In this document: one piece after another, positions 12,206-18,353 of the stretch
Position numbering within the stretch: position 1 is the first letter of the stretch
How the letters are laid out: each line of letters starts with the position of its first letter
Source: Candidatus Methylospira mobilis
Lineage (GTDB): Bacteria > Pseudomonadota > Gammaproteobacteria > Methylococcales > Methylococcaceae
Length of the DNA stretch: 32,000 bases
NCBI RefSeq assembly: GCF_009498235.1
Contig: NZ_CP044205.1
Location: 4,597,816 to 4,629,815, forward strand
Direction of reading: 5' to 3'
The notes under the pieces: model-generated
The model's input: the letters and a program-made list of their open reading frames with translations, nothing else
Database searches by the model: none
What the model was told of the DNA's origin: nothing
Translations under genes and position numbers: made by a program

Positions 12206-13834
12206 CTAGCCGGTCTGAGTGATGCGGATTGCCTGGGTCGGGCAATATTTTTCCGCCTGCCGCGCTTTTTCCAGCAGCGCGTGATCGGCCTGCGCATCAA
12301 GCAGCGTAACGCGTCCTTCTTCATCGACATGGAAAATTTCCGGCGCTTCCCCCGTGCAGGCGCCGTGACCTTTGCAAAGATCCATATCGATTTCTACCTG
12401 AAAGCCGGCCGCTGCGTGCGGGCAACCTCCGGCAGCCTGGTGGTGTAGACCGGGCGATGCGTTGTCTGAGCTGGCGGTTGACGCGCGGTTATTCCGCTGG
12501 TAGCGGATCAAGCAGGGCGAGCCGGGCTCGACTACCATTTTTTTATAGTCGTCGCGGTAGCTTTCCGCGGGGGCTGACAGTTCGAAGCGGTAGCGCATCA
12601 GTAACACGCTGATGATGGCTTTGATCTGGAACAGCGCAAAGGCATTGCCGGAGCATTTGTGTCTGCCGCCGCCAAATGCCTGCCAGCCGTACAGATTGCG
12701 GTCTTCGCCGCGTTCGGGCGCATACCGGTCGGGGTCGAATTGCTCGGGGTTCGGAAACAGCTCGGCGCTGCGATGTGTTACCGAAGGCGCGGCGCAGACA
12801 AACTGTCCCGCCTTGATCACAAAATTCTTTACGCGAAAATCCTTGACGACTTTGCGCATCAGGATGATCAACGGCGGGTGCAGTCTCAGTACTTCCCTGA
12901 TTACATTTTCCAGGCGCGGCATCTGCCGTAACGATTCGAAGGTGACCGGGTTGCCGTCGCCGAACAACCCTTCCAGTTCCTGTTGCACCGCTTGCAGATG
13001 TTCTGGGTGACGCAGCAGTTCGATCAATACCCAGGCGGTAGTGCCTGAGCTGGTGTGGTGGCCTGCAAATACCGCGGCGATCAGCATGCCGGTGATTTCG
13101 TGCGCGCTGAGTTTGCTGCCGTCGTCGTAGCGCGCGTCGATCAGCGCCTGGAAGACGTTGGTCGACTGTTCCCGGCTGTGCGCGCGTTTTTCCATGATGG
13201 CGGCCACCAGCTCCTGCAGGCGCGCGCGCGCGCGGTCCCTGCGCTTGAATACCGGCAGCGGCAGGTAGGGGAAAACATAGGCTACCGGCTGTATGCCGTG
13301 TTCCAGATCGTGATAGATTTCGGCGAACTGCTCGTTGAGCTCGTGGCGGAATTCCGATCCGAGCAGACAGTGGCTGGAAGTATAGATGGTCAGCAGTTTG
13401 GTGAATTCCAGCAGGTCGAGTTGCCCGCTTTCGCCCCAGTTTTGAATCAGTCCTTCGACTTCGGCAACGATGGTGTCGGAATAGGTGCGCATCGGTTTGT
13501 CGCGCAGCGCCGGCATCAGCATTTGCAATTGCTGGTTTTTACGTTCGATCGGCGCATCGAACACCACGCCTTTTCCGAATATCGGCGTCATGATTTTGTA
13601 GGCCGGCCCTTGATCCAGCACATCGTCAGGAGCTCGGTAAAACGCCTCGCTGGCTTCGGCGCCTGTCAGCAATACCATGTTCTGATGAAACATTTTGAAT
13701 TCGGCGACATCCCCGAGCCGGGCGCGCAGTCGCATCATGAAGTCATGGGGGTTCTTGCCGAAGTCGAGTATATGTCCGAGCAGCGGCAGCGAGCCGCTCA
13801 GTTTGGGCGGTGTCAGGGCGTCTTGATTATTCAT
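12206..13834 (-). CDS. cyp51: Sterol 14-alpha-demethylase CYP51 fused to a C-terminal 3Fe-4S-type ferredoxin
   Basis: This is a 542-aa ORF. It has the CYP51 B'-helix signature YKIMTPIFGKGVVFDA, the I-helix AGHHTSS and the heme loop FGGGRHKCSGNAFA. A Ser/Ala-rich linker (NNRASTASSDNASPG...AAAG) follows. The last ~64 aa form a ferredoxin (VEIDMDLCKGHGACTGEAPEIF...AEKYCPTQAIRI). Confidence 0.93.
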   Translation of the reverse strand: MNNQDALTPPKLSGSLPLLGHILDFGKNPHDFMMRLRARLGDVAEFKMFHQNMVLLTGAEASEAFYRAPDDVLDQGPAYKIMTPIFGKGVVFDAPIERKNQQLQMLMPALRDKPMRTYSDTIVAEVEGLIQNWGESGQLDLLEFTKLLTIYTSSHCLLGSEFRHELNEQFAEIYHDLEHGIQPVAYVFPYLPLPVFKRRDRARARLQELVAAIMEKRAHSREQSTNVFQALIDARYDDGSKLSAHEITGMLIAAVFAGHHTSSGTTAWVLIELLRHPEHLQAVQQELEGLFGDGNPVTFESLRQMPRLENVIREVLRLHPPLIILMRKVVKDFRVKNFVIKAGQFVCAAPSVTHRSAELFPNPEQFDPDRYAPERGEDRNLYGWQAFGGGRHKCSGNAFALFQIKAIISVLLMRYRFELSAPAESYRDDYKKMVVEPGSPCLIRYQRNNRASTASSDNASPGLHHQAAGGCPHAAAGFQVEIDMDLCKGHGACTGEAPEIFHVDEEGRVTLLDAQADHALLEKARQAEKYCPTQAIRITQTG

Positions 13835-13919
13835 GAGTGTCCAACGAATCCGTTATGGGATGATCCGGTGATGATAAAGTATTGCTATGATATTTATTAG
13901 ATGCGCCGCACATGAGAAC

Positions 13920-13988
13920 ATCTTTTTTATCGTTATTTATCTTTTTTATCTTTTAATCAACGCAAATTTATCTTTTAATCAACGCAAA
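13920..13988. repeat. AT-rich direct-repeat array in the cyp51 / NTF2-like divergent intergenic region
   Basis: 'tttatcttttaatcaacgcaaa' is perfectly and tandemly duplicated at 13945-13966 and 13967-13988. 'atcttttttatc' occurs at 13920-13931 and 13939-13950. The core ATCTTTT therefore appears four times. Confidence 0.9.
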
Positions 13989-14000
13989 GGAAAAATCAAC

Positions 14001-14603
14001 GTGCCTGCTTACCCTCGTGAAGAACTGGAAGAAATGGTGGCGCGCTGGCTGCAGGCCAACCGCGTGGCGGAAAACCAAGGCGACTGGATTAAAAGTCTGG
14101 GCGCTATGTACACGGAAGACGCTGAATATGGCTGGAACATGGGACCTAACCGCGAGTTTCTGGCGCGCGGGCGGCGTGAAATCGAAGAATGGGCTTTGGG
14201 CGCTCACATGGAAGGGTTCGAAAAATGGCGTTACCCTTACGACAAGATTATCATTGATGATAAACAAGGTGAAATAATCGGCATCTGGCGTCAGGTAGCG
14301 CCGGTGCTGCGCCCGGATGGCAGCGAATACGAAGTAGCCGGTCTGGGCGGTTCGTGGTTCCGCTATGGCGGTAACTTTCAATGGAGCTGGCAGCGCGATT
14401 TTTTCGATTTGGGCAATGCGAAGGCTATGTTCATGGATCTGGCGGCCGATGGCCGGCTTGAACCTTCGGTCAAGCGGCGTCTGGGTAAGCTGGCGCGCGG
14501 ACAGGCGCTTCCCGGCGTATATGCGTTGCATGCATCGCCGGGTGTTCTGCATGGCGCGAAAGCGCTCTTTACCATGGCGCGGATTGCCTTACTGGGAAAA
14601 TAA
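14001..14603 (+). CDS. Uncharacterised NTF2/SnoaL-like fold protein (200 aa)
   Basis: The start is GTG 14001, with AAGGA 10 nt upstream. The longer 238-aa ORF N-terminus reads through the AT-rich repeats and looks non-coding. The sequence pattern (N-terminal helix EELEEMVARWLQANRVAENQGDW, ...YTEDAEYGW..., a beta-rich half IIGIWRQVAP...YEVAGLGGSWFRYGGNFQWSWQRDFFD) resembles SnoaL/NTF2-family proteins. The fold call is by eye. Confidence 0.55.
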   Translation: MPAYPREELEEMVARWLQANRVAENQGDWIKSLGAMYTEDAEYGWNMGPNREFLARGRREIEEWALGAHMEGFEKWRYPYDKIIIDDKQGEIIGIWRQVAPVLRPDGSEYEVAGLGGSWFRYGGNFQWSWQRDFFDLGNAKAMFMDLAADGRLEPSVKRRLGKLARGQALPGVYALHASPGVLHGAKALFTMARIALLGK

Positions 14604-14741: not shown

Positions 14742-14878
14742 CGGGTCAGATTAAAGCCTATGAGTTAGTCAGGCAATTTCGCGCACAGGAATACGGGCTG
14801 TACACTCCGTGGTGAGATTTTCGGCCGATGTGGATGCAGTCTTGTCACGCTTGAAAGAATCCGGAAATATTTGGTCAC

Positions 14879-16888
14879 ATGACAGTATCGAATAAGGACG
14901 ACCCACAAGACAGTGCGCTATTAACCCGGGAAGCAATACTCGGGTCGTCTAGACGAGCTCAACAGTATCTGCTGTCATTGCAGAAAACGGAAGGGGATTG
15001 GGAAGGCGAGATGGTTTGGTGCAGCATGATACTTGCCCAGGCAGTGATCGTGCGCACCATCACCGGGCATCCCTATACTGAAAGTGAAAAGCGGCTTATT
15101 GTCCGGCATTTTAGCGTAACTCAAGCGACGGATGGTTCATGGGGGATGCATCCGGAATCTCCGGGCTATGTTTTTTTCACCACGCTTGCCTATGTAGCGC
15201 TGCGTCTGCTCGGGCTGTCTCCACAGGATGATCTGCCGGCGCGCGGACTAAGCTGGATACATGCGCAGCCGCAGGGCGTCAAAGCCATACCTACCTGGGG
15301 AAAATTCTGGCTGGCCTTGCTGGATCTGTACGACTACCGCGGTTTGAATTCTGTCCCGCCGGAGTTGTTTTTGTTGCCTGAATGGCTGCCGTTCCATCCC
15401 CGCCGTTATTATTGCCATACACGCCAGATTTATCTGGCGATTGCTTATCTTTTCGGTTTGAGATTTCGTGCCGAATTGCCGGATGGATTGCGTGACAGCC
15501 TGAGGCAGGAGCTTTATGGCGATGAGTATGCGCAAATAGACTTCGCTGCGTTGAGACATCTGTTGGCTCCCAGTGATGTTTACGTGCCGATTACCCCGCT
15601 GTTGCGCGGTGTTTACGATCTGCTTGCCGCCTATGAGAGCGTGCATAGCAAGGCATTGCGCAATAAAGCCTTGGGGTTGTGTTTGAAACATATCGTTTAT
15701 GAGCTGAAAGTCAGCAATTATCAAGGTATTTCCCCGGTAAGCGGTCTATTGAACTGCCTGGTGTTGTTTGCAACGGATAAGCAGCACCCCGAATTGGCGC
15801 CGAGTCTGGCCGGAATAGAGACTTGGCGCTGGCAGGATGAAGAGGAAGGTTTGCGATATGTGGGCGCACACTCCAATACATGGGATACCGCTTTTGTATT
15901 GCAGGCGCTGGCCGAGATGCGTGCGCCGGCTCCGGAGGTTAATGGTGCGGTCAATCGCGCGCATGCCTTTTTGGCGCGCGCGCAGATCGTTGACGAATTG
16001 CCCGATTACCAGTCTCACTGGCGCGATAGCGCGCTGGGTGGCTGGTGTTTTTCCGATGGCCGCCATCGCTGGCCGGTCAGCGATTGCGCCGCCGAAGCGT
16101 TAAGCGCGTTGTTGTCGCTCTATGAGCATCCGGACATGTCGATAGACCGTCCGTTCGAGCGCCTACGCCTGGATCAGGCTGCGGACTTCATTCTGTCCAG
16201 GCAGAATGCCGATGGCGGTTTTGGCACCTACGAACGCCGGCGCGGTGGTAAACTGCTGGAAAAGGTTAATCCATCGGAAATGTTCGGTCAGTGCATGACC
16301 GAGCTTTCCTATATCGAATGCACCAGTTCGTCGCTGGCGGCTCTCGCGCATTACCGTAAACGCTTTCCATCGCATACAATAACAGGATTAAATGGCGCGA
16401 TAGCTCGGGCTGTGACTTTTTTGCGTGCCCAGCAGCTCAAGGATGGTTCTTTTCAGGGGTTTTGGGGCATCAACTATACTTATGCCTGTTTTCATGTCGT
16501 GCGTAGTTTGCGCATGGCTGAGGTTGCAGTGGATGATGGATTAGTGCAATCTGTGGCACAATGGTTGCTGACGCATCAAAAGCCAGATGGCGGTTGGGGC
16601 GAGCATTATACGAGTTGTCTTGGCGGTCGCTATATCGAACATGAGCAAAGCCAGGTCGTGATGACCGGTTGGGCGCTGATGGCGCTGGTTGAGGTATGCC
16701 CGCATGATCATGTTGCGATTCGGCGCGGTTACGGCTGGCTGCTGACGCAACAGCTTGAGAGCGGCGCATGGCCGCGCCAAGCGGTAAATGGGGTTTTTTT
16801 TGGGGCAGCCATGCTGGATTATCGTTTATATCACAGCTATTTCCCCGCTTGGGCGATATTCCGTCTGGCGCGCTTGCTGGGTGAATAG
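14879..16888 (+). CDS. osc: Oxidosqualene cyclase (lanosterol/cycloartenol/parkeol synthase class)
   Basis: This is a 669-aa ORF with multiple QW repeats (RQNADGGFGTYE, QLKDGSFQGFWG, QKPDGGWGEHY, QLESGAWPRQ). The catalytic motif is VSDCAAE (the OSC-type DCTAE), not the DxDD of squalene-hopene cyclases. The WDTAF motif is present. Confidence 0.92.
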   Translation: MTVSNKDDPQDSALLTREAILGSSRRAQQYLLSLQKTEGDWEGEMVWCSMILAQAVIVRTITGHPYTESEKRLIVRHFSVTQATDGSWGMHPESPGYVFFTTLAYVALRLLGLSPQDDLPARGLSWIHAQPQGVKAIPTWGKFWLALLDLYDYRGLNSVPPELFLLPEWLPFHPRRYYCHTRQIYLAIAYLFGLRFRAELPDGLRDSLRQELYGDEYAQIDFAALRHLLAPSDVYVPITPLLRGVYDLLAAYESVHSKALRNKALGLCLKHIVYELKVSNYQGISPVSGLLNCLVLFATDKQHPELAPSLAGIETWRWQDEEEGLRYVGAHSNTWDTAFVLQALAEMRAPAPEVNGAVNRAHAFLARAQIVDELPDYQSHWRDSALGGWCFSDGRHRWPVSDCAAEALSALLSLYEHPDMSIDRPFERLRLDQAADFILSRQNADGGFGTYERRRGGKLLEKVNPSEMFGQCMTELSYIECTSSSLAALAHYRKRFPSHTITGLNGAIARAVTFLRAQQLKDGSFQGFWGINYTYACFHVVRSLRMAEVAVDDGLVQSVAQWLLTHQKPDGGWGEHYTSCLGGRYIEHEQSQVVMTGWALMALVEVCPHDHVAIRRGYGWLLTQQLESGAWPRQAVNGVFFGAAMLDYRLYHSYFPAWAIFRLARLLGE

Positions 16889-16997: not shown

Positions 16998-18353
16998 ATG
17001 CAAGAAACGACAGCTAACCGTGAGCGTGTAGATGTCCTTATTGCCGGAGGGAGCATAGCGGGTGTCGCGGCAGCGGCGGCGCTTGCTCAGTTGGGATTGC
17101 GGGTATTGATCGTCGAGCCTTCGCCGGACCAGGGCCGGCGTCTCGCCGGAGAATTAGTGCATCCACCCGGTATCGATGGACTACGAGAGCTTGGGTTGCT
17201 TGCCGAGCACGATGGTTTGGGGCAGAAGGTGCAGGGATTCGCCGTGTTTTCCCAGGGAGGGGAGGCCGGACCGCAGCCCATGGTCTTGCCTTACGGCGAG
17301 GTAGACGGCAAACGCCCGGTAGGGCTGGCTATCGAGCATACGACTCTGAAGGAGCGATTGCTGGAGCGCGTAAAAACCTTTAACGCCGTTGACGTCTGGC
17401 AAGGAGCTCGCGTAACCGCGATGAATTCCGTGGAGGGAGGATCGTATGTTGCTACTGTGGATACCGGTTCTGCCGAGTCTGAATTGCGCGTTCATGCCAG
17501 ACTGATACTGGGGGCGGACGGGCCGATGTCGCAAATGCGCAAGATGATCGGTATCCAGTACGAAACTCAGCGCTATTCCGGCATGATGGGTACGGAAGTC
17601 AGTGATGCGCATTTACCCTATCACGGCTATGGTAATATCTTCCTGAACCAGGTGGGAGTGTCCTATGCCTATGCGATAGGCGGCGGCCGCGTACGCGTGA
17701 TGTTCGAAATTCTGAAGGGTGCGGATCAGAAGGGATCGATAGCTGCGCATTTGGCGGCGTTCCCTGATGAATTCAGACGGGAAGTGCAGGAAGCCATGAT
17801 GGCCAGCAAACCGCTGGCGGCGGCGAACTACTGCATCATTCCGGAAACCACGGTCAAAGGCAACGTCGCCCTGATAGGCGACGCGCGCGGCTGCTGTCAT
17901 CCGCTGACGGCGTCCGGCATCACTGCCGCCGTTAAGGATGCGTTTGTGCTGCGCGACGCTTTGCGTAAGCATAACCTGGATGTAACCGCCGCCCTGCGCG
18001 AGTATGCGCAGGTGTGCGATCAATTGCAGCTAACCCGTCGCACTCTGGCGGAAGAACTGCGCGAAGCGTTTCTTGCCGAAACGCCGCAGGCGAAATTGCT
18101 CAAGCAATGTATCTTTTCCTACTGGAAAACCAGTCCGCAGGGACGCGCCGAGTCCATGAATCTGCTGTCCACGCTGAATAGCAGCATTATTGCGCTGGCA
18201 GTGCAGTACGCGATGGTGGCGCTGCAGGCTTTCCGGTTGCTGCCGCAATGGATAAAAAGCAATGCGCTGATGGATTGGGTCCGCGGCGTGATCGGTCTGC
18301 TTTTCAAAAGCTTGAGCTTTCAATATGTGGCGATAACACAGCGAGTCAAATAG
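16998..18353 (+). CDS. sqmo: Squalene monooxygenase (squalene epoxidase), FAD-dependent
   Basis: This is a 451-aa ORF with AGGAG 7 nt upstream. It has the dinucleotide fold DVLIAGGSIAGVAAAAALA...VLIVE. GELVHPPGI matches the eukaryotic GELLQPGG motif, and GDARGCCHPLTASGITAAV matches GDAxNMRHPLTGGGMT. It lies directly downstream of the cyclase. Confidence 0.88.
   Translation: MQETTANRERVDVLIAGGSIAGVAAAAALAQLGLRVLIVEPSPDQGRRLAGELVHPPGIDGLRELGLLAEHDGLGQKVQGFAVFSQGGEAGPQPMVLPYGEVDGKRPVGLAIEHTTLKERLLERVKTFNAVDVWQGARVTAMNSVEGGSYVATVDTGSAESELRVHARLILGADGPMSQMRKMIGIQYETQRYSGMMGTEVSDAHLPYHGYGNIFLNQVGVSYAYAIGGGRVRVMFEILKGADQKGSIAAHLAAFPDEFRREVQEAMMASKPLAAANYCIIPETTVKGNVALIGDARGCCHPLTASGITAAVKDAFVLRDALRKHNLDVTAALREYAQVCDQLQLTRRTLAEELREAFLAETPQAKLLKQCIFSYWKTSPQGRAESMNLLSTLNSSIIALAVQYAMVALQAFRLLPQWIKSNALMDWVRGVIGLLFKSLSFQYVAITQRVK

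Follow-up and report, generated by a model that had tools for sequence, protein, structure and literature searches.

[quoted passage not shown] Comparative genomics of sterol-producing and non-producing methanotrophs had led to a hypothetical protein of the NTF2 superfamily, encoded close to sterol genes in a number of methanotrophs (PMC13277303). Co-expression of the Methylococcus capsulatus gene (H156_RS0106965, also listed as H156DRAFT_2205 and MCA0111; PMC13277303 and its supplement) with CYP51-Fdx in lanosterol-producing Escherichia coli turned all detectable 4,4-dimethylcholesta-8,14,24-trienol into 4,4-dimethylcholesta-8(14),24-dienol, a product identified by NMR, while lanosterol itself was no substrate (PMC13277303). 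Conversion was impaired in the variants D133A, Y43F/A, Y37A and Y78A and unimpaired in Y37F, Y78F, Y80F/A and D136A; far more distant homologs from Mycobacterium tuberculosis and a Sandaracinus MAG were active, too (PMC13277303). These activity data come from in vivo co-expression in E. coli (PMC13277303).

Here, we describe the corresponding gene, bsr, in Candidatus Methylospira mobilis, to which the DNA was also assigned by an exact-sequence match (CP135727.1). The window, i.e., the whole stretch of DNA that was analysed, comprises 32,000 nucleotides (NZ_CP044205.1, positions 4,597,816 to 4,629,815) and holds four sterol-pathway genes arranged around a single divergent control region, with cyp51-fdx leading away on one side and bsr, osc and sqmo on the other (Table 1). 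The cyp51-fdx product matches Pfam p450 (3e-77) as well as the M. capsulatus CYP51fx of PDB 6MCW (E 1e-259), where both the P450 and the ferredoxin part are covered, and osc, on the strand of bsr, begins 275 nt downstream of it. On one flank follow ftsK, zapD, hypB, hupH, a hydrogenase-like gene and lgt, on the other tsaD, dnaG, rpoD and thiC (Pfam/NCBIfam scan). Since the remaining window ORFs scanned are housekeeping genes or have no Pfam match, the sterol genes constitute a four-gene island. An earlier note on this DNA had described a 200-aa ORF divergent from cyp51-fdx across a 166-bp repeat-bearing spacer and on the same strand as osc and sqmo, and this layout holds in every point.

Table 1. 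Features of the sterol gene island and of bsr (positions in the window)
Feature	Position	Strand	Remarks and basis
cyp51-fdx, sterol 14alpha-demethylase with C-terminal 4Fe-4S ferredoxin, 542 aa	12206..13834	-	Pfam, PDB 6MCW
Ferredoxin domain of cyp51-fdx	approx. 12221-12397	-	Pfam Fer4_15, Fer4_13
AT-rich spacer between cyp51-fdx and bsr	13835..14000	.	exactly 166 bp, 33% GC
22-nt unit TTTATCTTTTAATCAACGCAAA, two copies, perfect tandem duplication	13945..13988	+	spacer repeat scan
bsr (WP_153250763.1, Ca. Methylospira mobilis)	14001..14603	+	200 codons, GTG start, TAA stop; translation
Y37 codon of bsr	14109-14111	+	pocket residue
Y43 codon of bsr	14127-14129	+	pocket residue
Y78 codon of bsr	14232-14234	+	pocket residue
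Y80 codon of bsr	14238-14240	+	pocket residue
D133 codon of bsr	14397-14399	+	pocket residue
D136 codon of bsr	14406-14408	+	pocket residue
bsr C-terminal helix, aa 182-198	14544..14594	+	DSSP of model, alignment, hydropathy
osc, 2,3-oxidosqualene cyclase	14879..16888	+	TIGR03463 927 bits (cutoff 851); NCBI name agrees
sqmo, squalene monooxygenase/epoxidase	16998..18353	+	Pfam SE 2.5e-23, FAD_binding_3

For bsr, RefSeq holds two versions of the reading frame, the one of 200 aa listed in Table 1 and a longer one of 238 aa starting at the ATG at 13887 (WP_228125002.1). All homologs in the alignment open with M-P-A-Y-P-R at the position of the GTG, which favours this start over the upstream ATG; an AGGA Shine-Dalgarno motif as ribosome-binding site lies 8-11 nt 5' of the GTG, and nearly all Methylococcaceae homologs among the matches listed are about 200 aa long. 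With 2069 database homologs, the ORF is a real gene, far beyond what chance would produce.

The reference for the functional assignment is a gene of M. capsulatus Texas (NZ_AUKJ01000018.1; L012 in our set of loci), a strain which yielded one Bsr homolog only. The ORF L012:10001-10603 opens with atgcccgcctacccc and closes with ctgtcgggcggctga. Exactly these letters correspond to the gene-specific 3' portions of AL373 and AL374, the published cloning primers, and the mutagenesis primers for Y37A, Y43A, Y78A and Y80A match inside the ORF (PMC13277303); this ORF is therefore the characterised gene. The window protein aligns with its product over 199 of 200 aa without gaps, at 73% identity and 86% positives, and the E value of 1e-114 lies well below the BLASTp threshold of E <= 1e-30 by which Bsr homologs were defined in PMC13277303. 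All six probed positions, Y37, Y43, Y78, Y80, D133 and D136, are present with numbering identical to that of the M. capsulatus protein. Across an alignment of 50 homologs from Methylococcaceae and Acidimicrobiales, five of them do not vary, and the conservation of Y37 is at least 90%.

The database homologs mentioned above were counted at E <= 1e-3 (best E 7e-120), and the best 120 of the 2069 share 67-90% identity with the window protein. Named sources among these 120 are Methylococcus, Methylocaldum, Methylotetracoccus, Methyloparacoccus, Methylolobus and Ca. Methylocalor, and their proteins are annotated solely as “nuclear transport factor 2 family protein.” An exhaustive HMMER scan of 1.84 billion representatives clustered at 50% identity returned no more than 306 clusters at E <= 1e-3, of which 30 reach E <= 1e-30. 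The family is thus narrow, so that a paralog with another function is hardly to be expected at 73% identity, and the assumption of a common function at this identity is a safe one because much more distant homologs retain activity. The window protein is a close 8,14-Bsr ortholog that very probably turns the 8,14-diene released by CYP51 into the 8(14)-ene, and we infer that the Methylospira protein would itself carry out the Bsr reaction. The view in the earlier note that the gene is uncharacterised and that no enzyme is assigned to the 8(14) position has been overtaken by the assignment of 8,14-Bsr in 2026 (PMC13277303). The function of the gene family is already published, and the note is an essentially correct independent prediction of it.

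The proposed NTF2/SnoaL pattern is weak at the level of sequence and clear at the level of structure. SnoaL_4 is the only Pfam family detected (E 1.3e-3, 19.2 bits, under the 24-bit cutoff), and the curated thresholds of the KSI/NTF2-clan families SnoaL_4, SnoaL_2 and NTF2 are not reached; there is no NCBIfam match, and neither the single sequence nor a 50-sequence profile retrieved a PDB chain related by sequence. The AlphaFold2 model computed on the 50-sequence alignment has a pLDDT of 92.4 and a pTM of 0.84. Helices at residues 6-26, 29-36 and 58-65 and then a curved sheet give the order of elements of an NTF2-like alpha+beta cone, after which three more helices follow (137-149, 155-165 and 182-198). 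A Foldseek search against the PDB gave 250 matches at E <= 1e-3, and the best 50 of these 250 are all NTF2-like, at 12-22% identity and with target-normalised TM-scores of 0.55-0.75. They include ketosteroid isomerase (KSI), SnoaL-like cyclases and limonene epoxide hydrolase, the three families against which the earlier note had proposed to search, next to PhzA/B, [4+2] cyclases, designed NTF2 proteins, PrhC and NsrQ. The fold predicted in the earlier note is thus confirmed. Bsr is seen as a soluble enzyme, some 200 aa long and with the cone of the NTF2 fold.

Hydrophobicity is highest at residues 182-198 (Kyte-Doolittle over 19 residues, 1.17), with a peak value below the transmembrane range, and no transmembrane segment was found in Bsr. 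This last helix is kept in the Methylococcaceae homologs and missing from those of the Acidimicrobiales in the alignment. It may serve as a peripheral membrane contact or as a contact to a partner protein (CYP51).

The genomic context was compared by tblastn with the window CYP51, ferredoxin, OSC and SQMO against 80 loci found with Bsr as query (32 of Methylococcaceae type and 48 from Acidimicrobiales MAGs). Among the 32 Methylococcaceae loci, a divergent cyp51-fdx lies upstream of bsr in 14, osc is found in 15, and both are present in 12. The complete layout of the window, in which bsr is likewise co-localised with CYP51 through the divergent fusion gene 166 bp away, occurs at nine loci (L003, L004, L006, L014, L015, L016, L018, L027 and L032), while osc and sqmo are located upstream, beyond cyp51-fdx, at three others (L009, L010 and L020). 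Twelve of the 32, including M. capsulatus, have neither cyp51-fdx nor osc near bsr, although the sequence extends at least 3 kb to each side; this agrees with the published position of the M. capsulatus gene amid unrelated genes (PMC13277303, Fig. 1c). Linkage to sterol genes is consequently supportive, but not universal. A co-directional order cyp51, fdx, bsr is found in 38 of the 48 Acidimicrobiales loci, whose Bsr proteins share 55-62% identity with the window protein, and osc was found within 10 kb of bsr in none of the 48. The association of cyp51-fdx with bsr hence recurs in two phyla, and the synteny sought by the earlier note is found in both Methylococcaceae and Acidimicrobiales.

In uncultured Acidimicrobiales, operons of the type TetR-P450-SDR-cyp51-fdx-bsr are widespread; they were not reported from the search of cultured genomes in PMC13277303. 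Some Acidimicrobiales lineages carry an intact bsr beside the SDR gene, with both P450 genes lost and the ferredoxin gene decayed.

The spacer between cyp51-fdx and bsr presumably holds the promoters of both genes, and a consensus scan of its 166 bp detected none. Its tandem duplication stops 12 nt short of the bsr start codon and overlaps the start of the ribosome-binding site; a 15-nt near-repeat is present in addition. A comparable repeat is missing from the corresponding spacers of 10 other Methylococcaceae loci, and the 80 loci share no conserved spacer element. The 22-nt duplication is thus specific to the lineage of the window.

The Bsr reaction is a net two-electron reduction of a diene in which the double bond that remains changes its place, and in E. 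coli a single protein is enough for it. CYP51-Fdx strips the 14alpha-methyl group from lanosterol to give the conjugated 8,14-diene, 4,4-dimethylcholesta-8,14,24-trienol, and in the proposed course the hydrophobic cone of Bsr would take up this product. Bsr would then add the equivalent of H2 at the diene ends, C-15 and C-9, leaving a single double bond at C-8(14); for the diene C9=C8-C14=C15, the addition of a hydride and a proton at its ends would amount to a formal 1,4-reduction. Tyr43, the hydroxyl group of which is needed in the M. capsulatus enzyme, and Asp133 would be the catalytic residues, and Tyr37 and Tyr78, positions at which aromaticity matters, would contribute aromatic packing on the sterol rings.

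Both the order of the chemical steps and the reductant are what we infer at this point. The authors of the enzyme study proposed that a hydride, possibly from NADPH, is transferred to C-15, whereupon the allylic anion takes up a proton at C-9 (PMC13277303). Because canonical Delta14-reductases work via carbocationic high-energy intermediates (PMC3791929), the reverse polarity is at least as plausible for Bsr: Tyr43/Asp133 would first protonate C-15, and the resulting allylic cation would then accept a hydride at C-9. As to the reductant, the Bsr of the window contains no Cys, and no His is conserved in the 50-homolog alignment, so that a metal or Fe-S redox centre is unlikely. Most likely, the reductant is a bound hydride carrier, probably NAD(P)H or another one present in E. 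coli. No recognisable nucleotide-binding motif was found in Bsr; a candidate for the carrier site is G114-L-G-G-S118, an invariant Gly-rich loop, and so are the additional helices at the C-terminus. Furthermore, a host helper protein may take part in the published E. coli conversion.

A more far-reaching version, to which we give an outside chance, would see in Bsr the first ene-reductase of the NTF2 fold, receiving electrons via the CYP51-linked ferredoxin or a new nucleotide site and having a second role independent of CYP51. The ferredoxin, which is always fused to or located beside the partner CYP51, might feed electrons to Bsr; alternatively, a new mode of nucleotide binding could make use of the G114-S118 loop and the family-specific C-terminal helices. 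Either option would explain the paired inheritance of Bsr and a ferredoxin-linked CYP51. The retention of bsr beside the SDR gene after loss of the P450 genes suggests the second role, which could concern other, possibly exogenous, steroid dienes.

Apart from catalysis by Bsr itself, the protein could act as a non-catalytic sterol binder which pulls out the sterol produced by CYP51 and passes it on to an oxidoreductase, of the host or a partner, for the actual chemistry, akin to the sterol-binding or handover role considered in the earlier note. That all activity data were obtained in vivo, that the lack of Cys and of conserved His leaves no obvious redox centre, and that an SDR gene accompanies bsr in the Acidimicrobiales operons would be in line with this idea. 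However, the conservative exchange Y43F, like Y43A and D133A, lowers conversion, which points to catalytic side chains (PMC13277303), Bsr proteins of three phyla are active in E. coli with the M. capsulatus CYP51 as the only co-evolved partner, and the Pfam scan of the window ORFs revealed no SDR gene in the sterol cluster. We therefore consider such a handover function very unlikely.

Less probable still is a pure isomerase, for which a separate reductase would remove the Delta14 bond and the NTF2 protein would shift the double bond of the resulting Delta8 sterol to Delta8(14) in the manner of KSI. The earlier note had favoured a sterol double-bond isomerase, and its choice of protein, substrate source and product was right, as the M. 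capsulatus ortholog takes the 8,14-diene from CYP51 and delivers the 8(14) sterol; the reaction type was not, the overall change being a net reduction rather than a pure isomerisation. E. coli has no sterol reductase, and with CYP51 and Bsr alone two ring double bonds become one there. Moreover, reduction and isomerisation were not uncoupled in any mutant, an ERG24 homolog is absent from most methanotrophs (PMC13277303), and Pfam detected an ERG4/ERG24 domain neither in bsr nor in any other window ORF scanned. [quoted passage not shown] Finally, an unrelated SnoaL/NTF2 protein, polyketide-cyclase-like or other, standing beside sterol genes by chance, as the sub-threshold SnoaL_4 hit as sole Pfam match and the generic NCBI annotation might suggest, is effectively refuted by the gapless 73% identity to a characterised, primer-verified enzyme with every probed residue present, and the synteny recurs in two phyla.

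With Bsr as the diene reductase of the island, Ca. Methylospira mobilis, a methanotroph of peat bogs, is predicted to contain 8(14)-unsaturated 4,4-dimethyl (or further processed) sterols; our literature search found no paper on the sterols of this organism. The window locus adds nothing fundamentally new to PMC13277303. Of remaining interest are the hydride donor and mechanism of a reductase of the NTF2 fold, the Acidimicrobiales operons and the Bsr copies lacking a CYP51. In addition, the compact four-gene island would be convenient for heterologous reconstruction.

Among known systems, the M. capsulatus 8,14-Bsr is closest: like the window protein, it comprises 200 aa with the same six pocket residues and an NTF2 cone followed by C-terminal helices, and it belongs to a Methylococcaceae host with a ferredoxin-fused CYP51 as partner. 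The two differ in their genomic setting, bsr being embedded in the sterol cluster in Ca. Methylospira and situated amid unrelated genes in M. capsulatus.

Several proteins resemble Bsr in fold. KSI (PDB 1OH0, 6UAD, 1W00) shares the NTF2 cone (Foldseek E about 1e-5, TM-score normalised to the target 0.7), the binding of a steroid nucleus in a hydrophobic pocket, a chemistry based on Tyr and Asp and the allylic shift of a double bond. However, its identity to Bsr is 15-18% without detectable sequence homology, its reaction requires a 3-keto group and involves no net reduction, and at the C-terminus Bsr is longer by about 60 residues (three helices). With no sequence match at threshold level and with catalytic residues that do not superpose according to PMC13277303, Bsr is not a member of the KSI family. 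SnoaL-like cyclases, limonene-1,2-epoxide hydrolase and PhzA/B are the best structural matches, and SnoaL_4 gives the weak Pfam signal; these proteins differ in substrates and chemistry, at 12-22% identity and below the Pfam gathering score.

In terms of function, the counterparts are ERG24, TM7SF2, LBR and MaSR1 of Methylotuvimicrobium alcaliphilum, which likewise act on a Delta8,14-diene in a net two-electron reduction directly after CYP51. These reductases have an unrelated integral-membrane fold, use NADPH and yield a Delta8 product by 1,2-addition at C-14/C-15, whereas Bsr, predicted to be soluble and of NTF2 fold, would reach the 8(14) product by formal 1,4-addition. Bsr is no multi-pass membrane protein with an ERG4_ERG24 domain, as the ERG24 type is, and Bsr and ERG24/TM7SF2/MaSR1 are functional analogues, not homologs.

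Beyond the Methylococcaceae, homologs of the 8,14-sterol reductase Bsr were found in a co-directional operon class of uncultured Acidimicrobiales, in which a TetR gene is followed by genes for a P450, an SDR, CYP51, a 65-aa ferredoxin and Bsr (L082, see table; L033 and L040-L080 are also listed for this class). The homologs comprise about 186 aa and share 55-62% identity with the window protein. The core arrangement cyp51-fdx-bsr was present in 38 of the 48 Acidimicrobiales loci, and none of the 48 featured an oxidosqualene cyclase within 10 kb. This operon class is not mentioned in the study characterising M. capsulatus Bsr, the search of which covered cultured genomes only (Lee, Giner and Welander, J Bacteriol 2026; PMC13277303).

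An adjacent CYP51 was absent in 10 of the 48 loci (L083 and L084; also listed are L034-L039, L052, L058, L065 and L067). Both P450 genes are missing at L083 and L084, and the 64-aa ORF preceding bsr at L084 represents a decayed ferredoxin, which kept ...YCPTHALSIEED and lost the N-terminal Cys/His cluster motif. Yet the Bsr encoded at both loci (P0125) is intact and has kept every invariant pocket residue in our alignment of 50 homologs (A1), which suggests that Bsr is maintained there without its usual partner.

Features of the window and of the Acidimicrobiales loci, with their coordinates
Feature	Coordinates	Remarks
TetR, P450, SDR, CYP51, 65-aa ferredoxin, Bsr homolog (in this order)	L082:4751-9564	co-directional; uncultured Acidimicrobiales MAG, 3.19-Mb contig
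TetR, SDR and intact Bsr kept, both P450 genes missing	L083:7264-9570; L084:7265-9570	
Hydrogenase maturation/accessory genes	window:7758-11192	hypB, hupH, NiFe hydrogenase large-subunit-like ORF
15-nt repeat	window:13920-13953	related to 22-nt unit
Perfect tandem duplication	window:13945-13988	22-nt AT-rich unit, TTTATCTTTTAATCAACGCAAA
Gly-rich loop G114-L-G-G-S118	window:14340-14354	invariant
Hydrophobic C-terminal helix, aa 182-198	window:14544-14594	Methylococcaceae-specific
bsr-osc spacer	window:14604-14878	275 nt

With respect to the protein itself, the Bsr encoded in the window contains no Cys and lacks a conserved His. The Gly-rich loop and the C-terminal helix, neither of which is among the residues mutated in PMC13277303, are candidate elements for contacting a cofactor, the membrane or a partner. 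In supplementary Table S3 of the same paper, primer AL379 is named 'D131A', whereas its sequence (W-S-W-Q-R-[A]-F-F-D-L-G, compared with L012:10385-10417 of M. capsulatus Texas) alters D133 in the 200-aa numbering of the main text. The mismatch concerns only the label and has no bearing on the conclusions.

Upstream of bsr, 12 nt separate the end of the 22-nt duplication from the start codon, and the duplication reaches into the beginning of the ribosome-binding site. The cyp51-bsr spacers at 10 further Methylococcaceae loci contain no comparable repeat, and the duplication consequently reflects either slippage of recent origin or a regulatory site specific to this lineage. RefSeq holds a 200-aa (WP_153250763.1) and a 238-aa version of the window protein (WP_228125002.1, ATG at 13887). 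The additional 38 N-terminal residues (window:13887-14000) would derive from translating the AT-rich repeat region and are present in none of the homologs; the longer annotation is probably a start-codon error.

Downstream, the bsr-osc spacer contains no predicted terminator and a single, weak promoter-like site (14842-14871). Several other Methylococcaceae loci show a similar bsr-to-osc match spacing of close to 300 nt, with no sequence conservation relative to the window spacer. The hydrogenase genes, located just past lgt, adjoin the sterol island and have no apparent connection to the sterol genes; their large-subunit-like ORF (387 aa) appears truncated, its match being confined to the C-terminal portion of the Pfam model.

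In its layout, the Acidimicrobiales TetR-P450-SDR-cyp51-fdx-bsr operon probably resembles the Rv0767c-Rv0762c region of M. tuberculosis.
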